Assembly: GCA_965204375.1 (NCBI GenBank) | Contig: OZ241986.1 | Span: forward strand, 2,080,001-2,144,000 | Direction: 5' to 3' | DNA: 64,000 nucleotides | From: Candidatus Latescibacterota bacterium | GTDB taxonomy: Bacteria > Latescibacterota > UBA2968 | Shown: positions 42,414 through 47,733 of the stretch, piece after piece | Layout: each line of letters begins with the position of its first letter | How positions within the stretch are numbered: the first letter of the stretch is position 1 | Notes under the pieces: model-generated | The model's input: the letters and a program-made list of their open reading frames with translations, nothing else | Told to the model about the DNA's origin: nothing | The model's database searches: none | Position numbers and translations under genes: made by a program

Positions 42414-42777
42414 AAGCTGGCCCTCCTTTGAGATGGGAAAAATACAACACGTACAACTCGGTATCGCACTCAATTCAAATACTCCTCCTTTCTCCGGCTC
42501 AATCTATTCAAAAAACTTATTTTCTTACCAACAAAAACATCGGTTAACCTAATAAATTTCCAAACATAAATTTCTAACTTTCAGACACAAGTACAAAAAA
42601 ACCATCTATACCATGCCCTCCCGCTGGTTTTTAGACGGTTTTAGCTCCGAACTGATGACGAAGACAAACTACTGTTTATTATTCATTTATGACAAATTTG
42701 TAATACAATCACACATTTGCACTTATATCGCAAATAATATGTATTAAAATTTCTCCCAATGTCAAGTGTTTTTTTGA

Positions 42778-42924
42778 TCACTTTTCGTCTTTATTCGCTC
42801 CACAGGATTCCCGCACGACCAGATGCGATTCCAAGTTTATTTGTCGAGGCGTATTCTGACCCTCGAGTTGCTCCAGCATCAGATCCATTGCCGCCTGAGC
42901 AACCGCCTCGTAAGGCGTTACCAG
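42778..42924 (-). pseudogene. 3' remnant of a LacI-family regulator (not in ORF track)
   Basis: Translates to LVTPYEAVAQAAMDLMLEQLEGQNTPRQINLESHLVVRESCGANKDEK*, matching the C-termini of the LacI paralogs at 45310 and 46603; no start codon or upstream domain. Confidence 0.9.
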
Positions 42925-43048: not shown

Positions 43049-44149
43049 ATGCTCGCTCGCCTGTATTTCACCTTTGTCTTCCTGCTGGGATTTGTTGCCT
43101 CTGCCAACGCGCAAGGCGATCCCGCCGAGATCCCCGCACGCTACGATCTGGCCCGCATGTCGCTGGAAGACGGCGAGGTCTATTATGCCGAGCAGCAATT
43201 CCTCAAAATCCTCAAAATTGACCCCAAGCACGCACCCACACATTTAATTTTGGGCCGCCTCTATCACCGTCAAAAACGCAACGCCAATGCTTATCGCCAC
43301 TTCAAAACCTATCTCGATATCTCGCCTGAAGCACCCGACAAAGCCACAGTTCGCGCCTTGCTCAATACCCTCGCCGAAAGCCTGAAAGCATCCGGCAAGG
43401 GGTGGGTGGTCATCGACCCATCAAAGCCCTGGCGGCCATCTGTCCCACCCCAACCCGATGAACTCGGTTTTATATCCATCCAGGGCGGCACCTTCCTTAT
43501 GGGTGCCACTTTTGAAAACGAAAAACCCATCCGCCTGGTCGCAGTGTCCGATTTCGAACTCCTGAACCACGAAGTCACAAACACTGAATACTTTGCCTTC
43601 ACCAGAGCCACAGGCCATCCCTCGCCCGAACACTGGCGCGAAGACTGGTTCTGGATGTCTGAGTTCGGCACCCATCCCGTAGTCAACATCACCTATTACG
43701 ACGCCGAAGCTTATTGCCAATGGCTGGACGCGCGCTTGCCCACCGAAGCAGAGTGGGAATACGCCTGCCGCGCGGGCCGCACCCAGGCCAAATATCCCTG
43801 GGGTGACGATCCGCCCGATGAACAAAAGGCCAATTACGGACGCATCTTCAAAACGCCTTACCCCACGAGAGCCGTCAAATCTCACCCCCCCAATGCCTAC
43901 GGTCTCTACGACATGGCGGGCAATGTGTGGGAGTGGTGTGCCGATTGGTACGATCCAAACTATTACAAAAATGCCCCCTCCGATAACCCTAAAGGGCCGG
44001 ACAAGGGCTTTGATTATCAACACACGCGCAGGGGTGGGCAATGGCAGTCCTCCCCCCATTCCCTGCGTTGTGCTCGCCGCTATGGTGGCGAACCCTCGGC
44101 TCAGGACAACGGCAGCATGGCCTACTTTGGCTTTCGCTGCGCGCGTTAG
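43049..44149 (+). CDS. Exported TPR + FGE-sulfatase (SUMF1/EgtB/PvdO family) domain protein
   Basis: GGTFLMG, HEVTN.EY, HPVVNITYYDA..YC.W...RLPTEAEWEYACR, YPWG, PNAYGLYDMAGNVWEW, GFRCAR. Confidence 0.9.
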   Translation: MLARLYFTFVFLLGFVASANAQGDPAEIPARYDLARMSLEDGEVYYAEQQFLKILKIDPKHAPTHLILGRLYHRQKRNANAYRHFKTYLDISPEAPDKATVRALLNTLAESLKASGKGWVVIDPSKPWRPSVPPQPDELGFISIQGGTFLMGATFENEKPIRLVAVSDFELLNHEVTNTEYFAFTRATGHPSPEHWREDWFWMSEFGTHPVVNITYYDAEAYCQWLDARLPTEAEWEYACRAGRTQAKYPWGDDPPDEQKANYGRIFKTPYPTRAVKSHPPNAYGLYDMAGNVWEWCADWYDPNYYKNAPSDNPKGPDKGFDYQHTRRGGQWQSSPHSLRCARRYGGEPSAQDNGSMAYFGFRCAR

Positions 44150-44162
44150 AGGAGAGACCGCC

Positions 44163-45230
44163 ATGGCAATCCGCCTCACATTTCTCTGCGCCCTCCTGAT
44201 CGCCCTTCCGATAGTCATATATAGCGGCGACATACCCCGCGTGCCATTGGGCCATGACGAAATCCGCTATCTCAGCAGTATTCCCAAAGACAATCCCCTC
44301 ACCCAAACTAAAATAGCCCTGGGCAAACTCCTCTTTTTTGACAAACGGCTCTCCAGGGACGGCAGCATAGCCTGTGGTTCTTGCCATCAGCCCCACCGCG
44401 CCTTTACCGATGGCCGCGTCTTGCCCACCGGTATTGATGGTCAGACTCCCAGGCGCAATGTGCCCACCCTGATCAACCGGGCCTACGGCACGATTTATTT
44501 CTACGACGGCAGGGCTGCTTCCCTCGAAGAACAGGCCCTTATCCCCATCCAGAGTCCCACAGAAATGGGCAACACCCTCGAGCAGGTCGTCGCCACTTTA
44601 TCGGTTATCTCTGGTTACCGCACCCACTTCAAAGCCGCATTTGGGGACAGCACCATCACGCCCGACCGCATCGCCAAAGCCTTAGCCGCTTTCGAGCGCA
44701 CCCTGATCTCTGGCGAATCGCCCTACGATTTGTTTGAATACGGCGGTCCCAGAGGCGCCATGTCCAAATCTGCCATCCAGGGCCTGCGCCTTTTTCGCAC
44801 CAAAGCGCGTTGTACACTCTGCCACATGGGATTCAACTACACCGACGAAGACTTCCACAACATCGGCACGAGTTGGGACCGCGCCGATCTTTCCACTTAC
44901 GAAAAAACCGGTAATTTAGAAGACATCAAAGGTATCGATCCCGGGCGTTACGAACAAACCCAGAAGCCAGAACACTTTGGCGCAATGAAAACACCTACCC
45001 TCCGCGAAATTGCACGCACAGCTCCCTATATGCACGACGGCAGCATCAAAACCCTGCAAGAAATCATCGAATTTTACGACAAAGGCGGTACGCCCAATCC
45101 CTTCCTCGACGAATTGATTATCCCCCTCAACCTCACAGACGCCGAAAAACAGGACCTGATCGCCTTCCTCAAAGCACTCAACGGCATCAACTGGCTCCAC
45201 ATTGAGCCGCCATTTAAATTTCCTAAATAA
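44163..45230 (+). CDS. Di-heme cytochrome c peroxidase / MauG family protein
   Basis: LGKLLFFDKRLS, CGSCH, RNVPT, DGRAASLEEQA, CTLCH, KTPTLREIARTAPYMHDG; GAGGAG RBS before ATG 44163. Confidence 0.92.
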   Translation: MAIRLTFLCALLIALPIVIYSGDIPRVPLGHDEIRYLSSIPKDNPLTQTKIALGKLLFFDKRLSRDGSIACGSCHQPHRAFTDGRVLPTGIDGQTPRRNVPTLINRAYGTIYFYDGRAASLEEQALIPIQSPTEMGNTLEQVVATLSVISGYRTHFKAAFGDSTITPDRIAKALAAFERTLISGESPYDLFEYGGPRGAMSKSAIQGLRLFRTKARCTLCHMGFNYTDEDFHNIGTSWDRADLSTYEKTGNLEDIKGIDPGRYEQTQKPEHFGAMKTPTLREIARTAPYMHDGSIKTLQEIIEFYDKGGTPNPFLDELIIPLNLTDAEKQDLIAFLKALNGINWLHIEPPFKFPK

Positions 45231-45234
45231 ATGT

Positions 45235-45270
45235 AAAAAGGCGACCGAACTTTTATTCGGTCGCCTTTTT
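45235..45270. terminator. Bidirectional intrinsic terminator (copy B; same stem as 34973-35007)
   Basis: AAAAAGGCGACCGAA-CTTTTA-TTCGGTCGCCTTTTT between convergent genes. Confidence 0.88.
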
Positions 45271-45309
45271 GCACACCACAACACAAAGGACTGAGATTCG
45301 ACATTTCTA

Positions 45310-46155
45310 TCATTTTTCGCTTTTGTTAGCCCCACACGATTCCCGTACGACCAGATCAGACCTCAGAGTTACTTGCCCGGGCTTGTCCTGCCCCTCGAGT
45401 TGTTCCAGCATCAGATCTATGGCGGCTTGAGCAATCGCTTCGTAAGGGGTTGCCAACGTCGTCAGGGACGGCATCATATAAGCCGCTACATCTATATCTC
45501 CATTACCCACCACAGCTACATCATCAGGTACGCGAATACCCGATTCTCGCAGGCCCCGACAAACGCCTATTGCCGTATAATCATCCCGACATACAAGAGC
45601 AGTAAACTGACCATCAAGCGCTTTCCCGAGGCGATACTCCACTTCTGAATAGGTGGTGCTAACAGGTATGTATTGGGGCATCAGGCCGTGCTTTTGCATC
45701 GCTAAAAGATATCCCTTACCCTTGTTTGAAAGCGGGCTGACTTCATTTTGATCCTCTCCAATAAATCCGATTCGCTCGTGACCCAACCTGATCAAATGCT
45801 CTGTGATCTCGTAAAAATTCGATACAAGGTCCAATACGACCCCATTGAGATTTTGAGTTGGATAGAAAAATGTCACCACTGGCACGCGCCCCCTCACGGT
45901 ATTCAAAATGCGCACTGATTCCTCTTCGTCACCTCGCGTATGAATTAAAAGTCCATCTACGCCTCGGGCAATCAACTGCCGGATCTGCAGGATCTGATCT
46001 TCCAGTGAGTTCTGAGAAATCCGATTAGAGGCCACTCTCAGCAGTAACTGATAATTCTGCTTATTAGCCTCCCTCAGAATATGGTCGACCAGACTTCCAA
46101 ACGTCTCGAGAAAAATGTGGTAGGTCAGCAACCCCAATGTACCCATCTTCTCCAT
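45310..46155 (-). CDS. LacI-family effector-binding domain protein lacking the HTH (functional truncated paralog or pseudogene)
   Basis: Collinear with 46603-47628 from GTLGLLTY to VVRESCGANK with no stop or frameshift; no TIKDIA HTH. AGGAG at 46162-46166 lies 6 nt before ATG 46155; the ORF track extends it to TTG 46215. Confidence 0.75.
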   Translation of the reverse strand: MEKMGTLGLLTYHIFLETFGSLVDHILREANKQNYQLLLRVASNRISQNSLEDQILQIRQLIARGVDGLLIHTRGDEEESVRILNTVRGRVPVVTFFYPTQNLNGVVLDLVSNFYEITEHLIRLGHERIGFIGEDQNEVSPLSNKGKGYLLAMQKHGLMPQYIPVSTTYSEVEYRLGKALDGQFTALVCRDDYTAIGVCRGLRESGIRVPDDVAVVGNGDIDVAAYMMPSLTTLATPYEAIAQAAIDLMLEQLEGQDKPGQVTLRSDLVVRESCGANKSEK

Positions 46156-46253
46156 TACAATCTCCTGCGCCATCAATTTGAGGCAGTAGTCGATCTCGAG
46201 CGATCTTCGTAGCAAGCCCAGTTATTTTGATATATAATCCCTTCTATTTTATG

Positions 46254-46269
46254 TGCAAAAACCGTGCCA
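46254..46269 (-). promoter_or_regulatory. Sigma-54 (-24/-12) promoter
   Basis: Minus strand TGGCACGGTTTTTGCA, a full match to TGGCACG-N4-TTGCW with GG-N10-GC spacing, pointing at the HTH-less LacI. Confidence 0.8.
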
Positions 46270-46286
46270 GTTTGTTAAAAATAAGC

Positions 46287-46299
46287 TAATTCTTTGATA
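46287..46299 (-). promoter_or_regulatory. Putative IHF binding site
   Basis: TATCAAAGAATTA matches WATCAANNNNTTR and lies between the sigma-54 core and the upstream palindromes. Confidence 0.6.
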
Positions 46300-46344
46300 A
46301 TGAAGGAGTTAGAGCAGATGGGGGATGATTCGCAAGTTTTTGAA

Positions 46345-46361
46345 TGTTGCATAATGCGACA
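46345..46361. promoter_or_regulatory. Putative enhancer-binding-protein site (UAS1)
   Basis: Near-perfect palindrome TGTTGCA-TAA-TGCGACA about 75 bp upstream of the -24 box. Confidence 0.55.
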
Positions 46362-46459
46362 TCTTAAACCTCAAGAAACGCATATCCACTGAGTTGGATA
46401 TGAAACAAATATATGTTTATAGATGATTTATGAAAAATTGAAGATAGGATATAGAGAAT

Positions 46460-46476
46460 TGTTGCAATTTAAAACA
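46460..46476. promoter_or_regulatory. Putative enhancer-binding-protein site (UAS2)
   Basis: TGTTGCA-ATT-TAAAACA has the same left half and TGT-N11-ACA spacing as UAS1. Confidence 0.45.
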
Positions 46477-46517
46477 TATGTGACGAATAGTACCCAGAGC
46501 CAGAAGCGGTATGAAAC

Positions 46518-46554
46518 AATAAAGGGGGAACACGGTTTGTGTTCCCCCTTTATT
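46518..46554 (-). terminator. Intrinsic terminator of the intact LacI gene
   Basis: Perfect 16-bp inverted repeat AATAAAGGGGGAACAC-GGTTT-GTGTTCCCCCTTTATT. Confidence 0.85.
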
Positions 46555-46602
46555 CATCAGGAGTAGTCAATCATCTAATCGGCACTATTGTATATAATAC
46601 CT

Positions 46603-47628
46603 TTAAATTATTTTGTTAGCTCCACACGATTCCCTTACCACCAGATTAGATCTCATGGTTATTTGCCGCGGCGTATTTTGCTCCTCAAATTGTTCCAACA
46701 TCAGATCCATCGCAGTCTGAGCAATCGCCTCGTAAGGCGTTACCAGCGTGGTTAGCGGTGGCGTCATATAAGCCGCCACGTCAATATCCCCACTCCCCAC
46801 CACAGCCACATCATCGGGTACGCAAAGACCCGATTCCCACAGACCCCGACAAACGCCTATTGCCGTATAATCATCCCGACACACAAGGGCTGTAAACCGA
46901 TCACCGAGTTCTTTGCTCTGACGATACCCAGATTCTGCAAAAATATCGCTAACAGGTATGTGTTCAGGTGTCAAGCTATGCTTTCGCATCGCCTGCAAAT
47001 ATCCTTTACCCCTACCTGAAACCGGGCTGGCCCCATTCCAGTCCTCGCCAATAAACCCAACCCGCTCATGCCCCAATTTGATCAAATGCTCTGTGGCCTC
47101 GTAAAAATCCGATACAAGGTCCAATATGACCCCACTCAAATTTTGAGTTGGATAAAAAAATGTCACTACTGGCACGCGTCCCTTAACGACATCCAAAATA
47201 CGCTCTGATTCTCCTTCGTCCCCTCGCGTATGAATTAAAAGTCCATCTACGCCCCAGGAAACCAACTGCTTGACCTGTATAATCTGGTCATCTCGTGGAT
47301 TTTTAGGAATCCGGTTAGAGGCCACTCCCATCATGATCTGATAATCATACTCATCAGCCACCTTCATTATCTGATCGGTCTGATATCCAAATGTCTCTTG
47401 GAAAATCTGGTAGGTCAGCAACCCCAGTGTACCTGTTTTTCCCGTCACAATCCCCCGCGCCATCAAATTGGGATTGTAGTCCATCTCGGCGGCTGTTTGT
47501 CGCACCAGTTCTCGGGTTTCCTCCTTCACCAATATCGAAGCGTTTGGAGATAGGGCACGTGAGACTGTTGAATACGAAATACCCAACTGCCTTGCTATAT
47601 CTTTGATGGTAACAGACCTTTTGTTCAT
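46603..47628 (-). CDS. LacI family transcriptional regulator (intact)
   Basis: VTIKDIARQLGISYSTVSRAL HTH, DYNPNLMAR hinge, VPDDVAVVG..D, PPLTT, LVVRESC. Start at ATG 47628. Confidence 0.95.
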   Translation of the reverse strand: MNKRSVTIKDIARQLGISYSTVSRALSPNASILVKEETRELVRQTAAEMDYNPNLMARGIVTGKTGTLGLLTYQIFQETFGYQTDQIMKVADEYDYQIMMGVASNRIPKNPRDDQIIQVKQLVSWGVDGLLIHTRGDEGESERILDVVKGRVPVVTFFYPTQNLSGVILDLVSDFYEATEHLIKLGHERVGFIGEDWNGASPVSGRGKGYLQAMRKHSLTPEHIPVSDIFAESGYRQSKELGDRFTALVCRDDYTAIGVCRGLWESGLCVPDDVAVVGSGDIDVAAYMTPPLTTLVTPYEAIAQTAMDLMLEQFEEQNTPRQITMRSNLVVRESCGANKII

Positions 47629-47719
47629 TAGATAACCCCTTTGCCAGGTAAACGACATAAACACTACAGAATTTAACAATTTTCGCAGAGATATGCTAAC
47701 AAATCAGGTTTATTTTTTT

Positions 47720-47733
47720 GCTAATCGCTTTGC
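47720..47733. promoter_or_regulatory. Possible LacI-type operator (autoregulation)
   Basis: GCTAATCGCTTTGC: CG-centred imperfect palindrome (10 of 14 positions symmetric) about 90 bp upstream of the LacI start. Confidence 0.35.

Follow-up and report, generated by a model that had tools for sequence, protein, structure and literature searches.

A LacI-family paralog without a DNA-binding domain, conserved beside an intact repressor in Candidatus Latescibacterota, is a candidate anti-repressor

What is the role of a LacI-family gene that has lost its DNA-binding domain but lies immediately downstream of an intact paralog and behind a promoter of its own? The question is raised by a 64-kb stretch of a Candidatus Latescibacterota genome (contig OZ241986.1, positions 2,080,001 to 2,144,000; hereafter the window), which is part of a source genome, G000, that consists of one contig of 6.34 Mb and whose relatives are deposited as Candidatus Latescibacterota metagenome-assembled genomes. 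Two genes of one LacI subfamily, the only members of it in G000, are arranged in tandem in this region: a full-length repressor gene (F; 46603–47628), coding for 341 residues, and a truncated gene (T; 45310–46155, stop codon included), coding for 281 residues that begin MEKMGTLG. Coordinates are window positions on the minus strand unless a genome or locus number is named. An initial annotation of the window proposed that T encodes a sigma-54-inducible subunit, dead for DNA binding, that either poisons the intact repressor by forming heterodimers or sequesters its inducer, and that it might connect an enhancer-binding-protein signal to a nearby TonB-receptor operon. Here we ask whether T is a gene at all, how it is likely to be controlled, and which of several possible functions fits it best.

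F has a PF00356 helix-turn-helix (HTH) headpiece (49.7 bits) and a PF13377/PF00532 core, and its recognition-helix residues are invariant across 31 aligned full-length relatives. T matches the core models only (PF13377, 117.7 bits; PF00532, 57.3 bits), and a PF00356 headpiece was looked for in it with Pfam and not matched. The two proteins align without gaps and are 69% identical (203 of 294 residues), in agreement with the description of T as a close paralog that lacks the HTH. The solved structures that best match T are LacI-family cores, and all of its NCBIfam matches are to LacI-family models, with every score under the equivalog cut-off of its model. Judged by these domain matches T is outside the LacI/GalR transcription factors in the strict sense because the HTH is absent, and inside the fold of the family's core domain. 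We looked in G000 for a stand-alone headpiece gene matching T and found none. The sole extra HTH fragment of that genome (G000 936540–936611, plus strand) has no relation to F or T; its 34 residues duplicate the N-terminus of another LacI gene, located at 931410, and it is positioned just upstream of a sulfatase-like open reading frame (ORF).

The open frame of T spans 45310–46215, with the ATG at 46155. The 68 nt upstream of this codon (46156–46223), which now form the T leader, are a decaying remnant of the 5′ hinge region of a LacI gene. The remnant decays in the orthologs too. The DNA homology with F extends beyond the hinge described in the initial annotation, as far upstream as AACTGG at 46218–46223. 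An AGGAG ribosome site (46162–46166) is present 6 nt ahead of the ATG as described, although neither it nor the start codon is as novel as had been suggested: the Met codon is ancestral, with most full-length relatives having IVMGK at the position of the T start, and the purine run (CGGGGG) at the position of the ribosome site is ancestral as well. The ATG (within IVMEK) is kept in all seven species of the genus, and it is the only usable T start in G004 and G016 because the remnant has a frameshifting insertion in both. Translation would thus be expected to begin at 46155, and a 281-residue product is also called by gene callers elsewhere. Shine-Dalgarno motifs (GGAG, GAGG or AGGA at −18 to −5) precede 884 of 1802 long ORFs in G000, compared with 123 of 1802 at a control position. 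Both genes end at intrinsic terminators. That of T is at 45235–45270 (16 pairs, −25.2 kcal/mol, z −8.6), and that of F, which is also present in G010, is at 46515–46551 (16-bp stem, −26.7 kcal/mol, z −6.9, followed by a U-rich tail) and is predicted to insulate T from F transcription.

To what extent T is shared was examined by searching 41 genomes (G000 and 40 relatives) for matches at E ≤ 1e-40. Seventeen of the genomes have a match, and the truncated form is present in seven species of one genus (G000, G012, G010, G005, G004, G015, and G016); in each of these the best match is truncated, with an open frame of 284–307 residues, and a full-length paralog precedes it by a few hundred bases. 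In G015 an opposite-strand gene of 452 residues lies between the full-length paralog and the truncated copy. The F-T pair is also found in three more distant genomes (loci L026, L027, and L029), such that a full-length paralog adjoins T in all ten loci, and none of them has a full-length gene at the T position. The 281 codons counted from the start-equivalent position are intact, with no stop or indel, in all ten T copies, as had been reported for the copy in the window. Upstream of the T start, stops occur 3, 3, 10, 17, 22, 24, and 26 codons away in the seven species of the genus. The ratio of nonsynonymous to synonymous substitution rates (dN/dS), a check that the initial annotation had called for, is not near 1 in T: the median is 0.26 and the range 0.15–0.51 (Nei-Gojobori NG86, 45 pairs, ten T genes), the adjacent full-length genes give 0.29 over the same codons, and a ratio of 1 was reached in none of 1000 bootstrap replicates for the five T pairs that were bootstrapped. 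Because there are orthologs in ten species, with a dN/dS of about 0.26 and with the start codon kept in seven of seven, T is on this comparative evidence a real, selected gene, and not debris or the relic of a recent deletion.

A protein search recovered 392 relatives at E ≤ 1e-30, and among the best 120 clusters, which were classified, 37 are shorter than 315 residues with no PF00356 listed; PF00356 is listed for the other 83, all of which have at least 336 residues. Sixteen of the 37 headless clusters have T-like N-termini (MEK, MKK or MQK; mostly 281 residues), 15 begin like the distant clade (M(T)TQRIVTER; 287–298 residues), and the remaining six are fragments or fit neither type.

The T genes of the genus, seven in all, fall into a single clade (Shimodaira-Hasegawa-like approximate likelihood-ratio test, SH-aLRT, 98), and the three distant T genes cluster in the tree with their own neighbouring F, so that two changes are needed. 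The intergenic regions of the two T clades are alike only in a −35 element (TTGAC) and an operator of 17 nt, and the pocket-equivalent residues of the distant T proteins resemble those of T in the genus of G000, not those of their own neighbour F. Either two truncation events, or one event followed by gene conversion, could have given rise to these patterns. There are runs of 31–51 nt identical between T and F that exceed those in permutations (p 0.001–0.07), but these are in blocks conserved in all paralogs, and conversion and constraint are thus inseparable on this test. At 80% consensus there are no residues that mark T off from F in both T clades. We also note a protein, P0003 (342 residues, from a 1441-nt contig), that is full-length with an HTH and whose core shows the signature MQKAGTLGLLTYQISLKIFGVMIDQ typical of T; a T gene that was never truncated, recombination, or chimeric assembly of the tandem paralogs could each account for it. 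Separately, one DNA contig (depth 12 compared with ~66) joins 45216 to 47725 and bypasses both LacI genes.

How is T controlled? All of the promoter elements reported between the F terminator and T are present. A −24/−12 box, TGGCACGGTTTTTGCA (46254–46269), has a perfect consensus and is the sole perfect sigma-54 match in the window; a transcript from it is predicted to start near 46243. T is preceded by the same box in G010. Upstream of it are two 17-bp sites of the form TGT-N11-ACA, of which site 1, TGTTTTAAATTGCAACA (46460–46476), has half-sites matching at 5 of 7 positions and site 2, TGTCGCATTATGCAACA (46345–46361), is palindromic at 6 of 7. Between site 2 and the −24 box is an exact match to the IHF consensus, WATCAANNNNTTR / TATCAAAGAATTA (46287–46299), and there are two IHF-consensus matches in the window as a whole where 1.9 are expected in total. 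The genome has a single PF04552 match (rpoN), 19 strong PF00158 matches representing sigma-54 activator genes, and four genes assigned at the level of the HU/IHF family. There are 39 perfect TGGCAC-N5-TTGCW boxes in G000 where about six are expected from base composition, and most of these boxes are therefore real.

The promoter is part of a ~230-bp cassette that is present in three copies in G000. Copy B (G000 2369002–2369232; locus L031) is 78% identical to the T copy over 232 nt, and copy C (G000 5312182–5312396; locus L032) is 77% identical over 224 nt. The upstream sites, an A/T-rich element, and the −24/−12 box are conserved in the alignment. Site 1 is kept in copies B and C as well as in G010 and G004, and in each of the three G000 copies site 2 and the −24 box are 75–76 nt apart; these three are the only G000 promoters with a site of ≤2 mismatches at that distance. 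Only the core ACAAxGxATTA of the IHF site is retained in copies B and C. Copy B drives a gene for a Calx-beta/fn3 protein of more than 2500 residues and is back to back with two genes, one for a histidine kinase (REC-PAS) and the other for an activator of the NtrC type (REC-AAA-HTH_8; G000 2371798–2373675). The operon driven by copy C codes for a P450-GPP34 fusion, an acyltransferase, and a glycosyltransferase. Of 16 genomes of the genus, eight contain cassette DNA (G000, G003, G004, G005, G008, G010, G013, and G014), and precisely these eight, but none of the others, have an ortholog of the activator (E ≤ 1e-100); the cassette and the activator are 0.3–6 kb apart in all seven relatives. This co-occurrence is strong evidence for linkage at the sequence level but not statistical proof, and the sigma-54 promoter of T is a credible one, apparently belonging to a three-promoter set tied to a single NtrC-type activator. 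In contigs from runs X4 and X5, which represent a related strain, upstream activator site 1 is doubled by a 19-nt insertion at 46459, as it also is in G010. Sigma-54-like boxes (TGGCATACTTTTTGCT, TGGCACACTTTTTGCA) are also found upstream of full-length LacI paralogs at L004, L009, and L011 (in G005, G014, and G018), and LacI genes may often be under sigma-54 in this genus.

Sigma-54 control of T is not the general arrangement, however, and in this respect the initial annotation holds for a minority of the species. The cassette is ahead of T in only two of the ten (G000 and G010), whose F-T spacers are 85% identical over 370 nt with the F terminator included. In the other eight, T has TTGACA-N17-(−10) ahead of it and, downstream of this promoter, a palindrome of LacI type (TGCAAACGTATGCA or a sequence close to it); in G012, G005, G004, G015, and G016 each 20-kb locus has a single copy of the palindrome, lying between F and T. 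T therefore has, as predicted from these elements, its own regulatory input in either form, sigma-54 cassette or sigma-70-like promoter with an operator. The promoter of the eight species closely resembles that of the operator-bearing operon coding for a 252-residue protein and a TonB receptor (see below), and because of this we infer that T originally, or at least as a rule, belonged to the LacI regulon and was moved under a two-component activator in G000 and G010. A species tree from three flanking proteins (88–98% identity) is star-like, and so does not decide whether the cassette of G000 and G010 was acquired by shared descent. In species with the sigma-70-type promoter (L002, L004, L005, and L008), the T leader has two conserved hairpin-forming stretches ~100–230 nt upstream of the ATG (CGAACGxGG...CCCCGTTCG and GCACAAC...TTGTGC) with no credible match in Rfam. 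An Rfam search of the whole window also gave no match.

A candidate target for F is the 252-residue/TonB-receptor operon, which is 3 kb away. It is preceded by a sigma-70-like promoter (TTGACA) and two operator-like sites (42690–42768), GTGCAAATGTGTGA at 42709–42722 and TTACAAATTTGTCA at 42690–42703, and the gene downstream of this promoter codes for Plug and CarboxypepD_reg domains. The promoter/operator region is kept in position in G010, G004, G015, and G016. In the relatives the operon follows a third LacI paralog, whose position is occupied by a LacI gene of 328–397 codons and which is full-length in G010, G004, G015, G016, and G005. In G000 the operon follows only a relic of that paralog (42778–42924), namely its last 48 codons, with the translation LVTPYEAVAQAAMDLMLEQLEGQNTPRQINLESHLVVRESCGANKDEK up to the stop and with no homology upstream. 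As the third paralog is reduced to a relic, F is the only full-length member of the subfamily, and the sole close full-length paralog, remaining in G000. With the recognition helix invariant in the 31 full-length relatives, F plausibly binds the operators left by the deleted third paralog, and the operon is a probable target of F.

LacI-type operators also appear in the activator-linked cassettes of two relatives. In G010 (L033; G010 2335200–2335600) and G004 (L034; G004 5174530–5174930) there are two or three such operators (TGCACACATTTGCA and similar, 23 bp apart), and they begin inside the −12 element, an arrangement suggestive of a repressor clamping a sigma-54 promoter. The G010 cassette drives an operon coding for two hybrid PAS kinases and the activator itself. 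LacI-type operators are absent from copy B of G000. We note an unusual arrangement near one of the distant F-T pairs (L027), which is flanked by two thiamine pyrophosphate (TPP) riboswitches (L027 961–1058 and 3407–3503, plus strand; 69.8 and 67.3 bits, with a gathering score of 54.3), one ~190 nt upstream of the full-length LacI gene and the other ahead of a TonB-dependent receptor gene; a riboswitch ahead of a LacI regulator is not commonly seen.

Could T pair with F? We modelled the F core (residues 61–341) together with T in three runs and took the median score. The interaction prediction score from aligned errors (ipSAE) is 0.76, compared with 0.00 for the best control, a pass that may reflect the solved dimers of the LacI family and so be a sign of likeness and not of binding. 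The mark is reached by 58 of 80 solved complexes and by two of 110 mismatched pairs, the runs share at least 89% of contacts, and the partner has a predicted local distance difference test (pLDDT) value of at least 78. A heterodimer, which the initial annotation had suggested be sought by structure prediction, is thus compatible with the model, with the reservation just given.

Interface positions were defined from the same model. The C-subdomain interface has 21 positions, of which 13–18 are identical between T and F across the genus, and dN/dS there is 0.28 in T and 0.22 in F. The N-subdomain interface has 26 positions, of which 10–15 are identical, and dN/dS is 0.37 in T and 0.10 in F. In the rest of the core (233–234 positions) the two are 70–79% identical, with dN/dS of 0.22 in T and 0.27 in F. 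It is through the N-subdomain interface that the effector site of LacI proteins is linked to the heads, and the relaxed N-interface fits a subunit that is without DNA-linked allostery and may still dimerise. The effector pocket was compared at 15 equivalent positions, mapped by alignment onto the residue roles in E. coli LacI; these are near-uniform over all T genes, and 12 of the 15 are identical to F in G000. As far as the model and this mapping can be trusted, T still has both its effector pocket and the surface of the C-subdomain through which LacI proteins dimerise constitutively.

The explanation that we tentatively prefer, at a little short of an even chance, is that T acts as a dominant-negative subunit and thereby connects a two-component signal with a LacI regulon, probably including the nearby TonB-receptor operon. 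T in G000 would be a stand-alone transcription unit, insulated by the terminators and driven by sigma-54. When the linked NtrC-type activator fires, T would be made and would pair with F, the resulting single-headed F:T dimers would be unable to hold palindromic operators, and the F regulon, most likely the 252-residue/TonB-receptor operon, would be derepressed.

Several observations weigh against this. The N-subdomain interface of T has diverged from that of F and evolves faster, which could mean that T and F pair poorly, and a model that may pass only by way of solved LacI dimers cannot rank heterodimers against homodimers. The T pocket in G010, G005, and G016 resembles that of the third paralog, not that of the adjacent F, and a conserved pocket is equally consistent with a ligand sink. 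The connection to the TonB-receptor operon, which the initial annotation offered as a possibility, gains from the pair of LacI-type operators ahead of the operon, but the G000 operator is diverged, with four mismatches to the idealised palindrome, and is unmatched at ≤3. The idealised operator, TGCAAACGTTTGCA, has one match at three mismatches in the window, far from the locus, where 3.2 are expected, and no match in the 20-kb G000 locus; genome-wide there is no excess of it over a reversed-pattern control in G000 and G010, and there is an excess in G004 and G015. The co-occurrence of cassette and activator is drawn from kin genomes and depends on an E-value cut of our own choosing. As to transcription, the RNA-labelled run X5 has the same depth on genes and spacers as DNA run X4 from the same sample and is uninformative, as is RNA run X21, which contributes one 41-nt piece around 43904–43944 and leaves F and T uncovered.

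The initial annotation named subunit poisoning and inducer sequestration together, and the data here do not tell a decoy from a sink. As a sink or buffer, homodimers of T would bind the ligand of F (or of the third paralog) and lower its free level, and T made on activation would then strengthen or delay repression, not relieve it. This seems unlikely, although it is the likeliest of the rivals. It would account for the uniformity of the pocket-equivalent positions in both T clades and their 12 of 15 identities with F in G000, for purifying selection over the whole T core and not the dimer surface alone, and for the divergence of the N-subdomain interface from F. However, T would have to be present in amounts comparable to the ligand, and two proteins that are 69% identical would be hard to keep from mixing. 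The full-length paralog beside T in all ten loci also speaks against a sink, although a tandem origin explains that too.

T might instead have acquired a new partner, acting as a cytoplasmic sensor of ligand for a target other than F, for example a kinase/activator system or a transporter. The N-subdomain surface of T evolves three to four times faster than that of F, and T is within the regulon of the activator in G000 and G010, as might be expected if so; but there is no candidate except the full-length LacI linked to T across the ten loci, and no residues are both common to the two T clades and distinct from F. We regard a new partner as somewhat less likely than a sink.

A modulating role is a little less likely again. 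Here F:T dimers, or dimers of T with the third paralog, would still occupy paired operators through higher-order assembly and have an altered response to effector, so that T tunes the regulon. Operators are paired 23 bp apart in relatives, a single recognition helix in all full-length paralogs leads one to expect mixed species at the same operators, and the T pocket is unlike the adjacent F in three species. The proposal is otherwise pure conjecture, and one-headed dimers of the LacI family bind operators poorly, as known from lacI negative-dominant genetics. Finally, a recent deletion fusion or a decaying pseudogene behind a chance promoter would explain the absent head and the degraded remnant upstream, but it is highly improbable given 281 intact codons in ten species at a dN/dS of about 0.26, a conserved start codon, and a genuine LacI relic in the same window that is only 48 codons long.

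It is possible, though we hold it somewhat doubtful, that Latescibacterota have a conserved natural family of LacI anti-repressors, consisting of headless ligand-binding subunits encoded beside their target repressor, with a promoter swapped between two logics. In eight species the promoter would be a sigma-70 one under LacI operators, a copy of that of the TonB-receptor operon, and would give self-reinforcing induction, and in two a portable sigma-54 enhancer cassette would give an override by a two-component signal; in G010, with LacI operators over the −12 box of the activator operon, a feedback loop running through the activator, the headless subunit, and the repressor would be closed. The two alternative promoters on T would amount to a natural experiment in regulatory rewiring, and the repressor, antagonist, and operator to a ready-made part for synthetic circuits.

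That LacI without its head is negatively dominant is a classic finding of laboratory genetics. The i-d (negative-dominant) proteins of E. coli lacI, and its N-terminal restart proteins, are headless or head-defective, bind inducer, oligomerise, and poison the wild-type repressor, but unlike T they are laboratory mutants and not conserved genes. A headless LacI that is natural, under selection, and widely conserved, and that has a signal input of its own, would, if confirmed, make negative dominance a regular circuit element of bacteria in the largest family of sugar-responsive repressors. We found no described case of a natural headless LacI antagonist in the full-text literature outside subscription-only journals, and a term search of a survey of LacI regulons (PMC4052901) returned no mention of truncated or heterodimerising LacI, nor of sigma-54.

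The closest known parallels from other families are three. TrlR (TraS) of Agrobacterium octopine-type Ti plasmids is a copy of TraR without its DNA-binding domain that is induced by an opine (mannopine) and forms inactive TrlR:TraR dimers (PMC3907764). T is similar in being a duplicate of a transcription factor minus the DNA-binding domain and in having a separate signal input, and its proposed mechanism is by analogy with this one. TrlR, as described there, belongs to the LuxR family, antagonises an activator, is derived by a frameshift, and is plasmid-borne in few strains, whereas T belongs to the LacI family, faces a repressor, is chromosomal, and is selected in at least ten species. SinI and SlrA of Bacillus subtilis are small paralog-derived proteins with no DNA-binding domain that bind the oligomerisation region of SinR and stop it from binding operators, with one of them encoded beside SinR and the two having separate inputs (PMC3917956). 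These consist of a short helical hook only, with no ligand-binding domain, unlike T, which keeps the whole 281-residue core. CerN of Cereibacter sphaeroides, an HTH-less LuxR homolog opposing CerM (PMC11655674), is like T in being a natural HTH-less homolog of a regulator and is reported to act as an antagonist; the family differs. The promoter of T in turn has the form of NtrC-type sigma-54 promoters, with two to three palindromic sites 75–220 nt upstream, an A/T-rich IHF-like site, a perfect −24/−12 box, and a linked REC-AAA-HTH_8 activator; it departs from them in that its output is a headless repressor paralog and that LacI-type operators overlap the same cassette in relatives.

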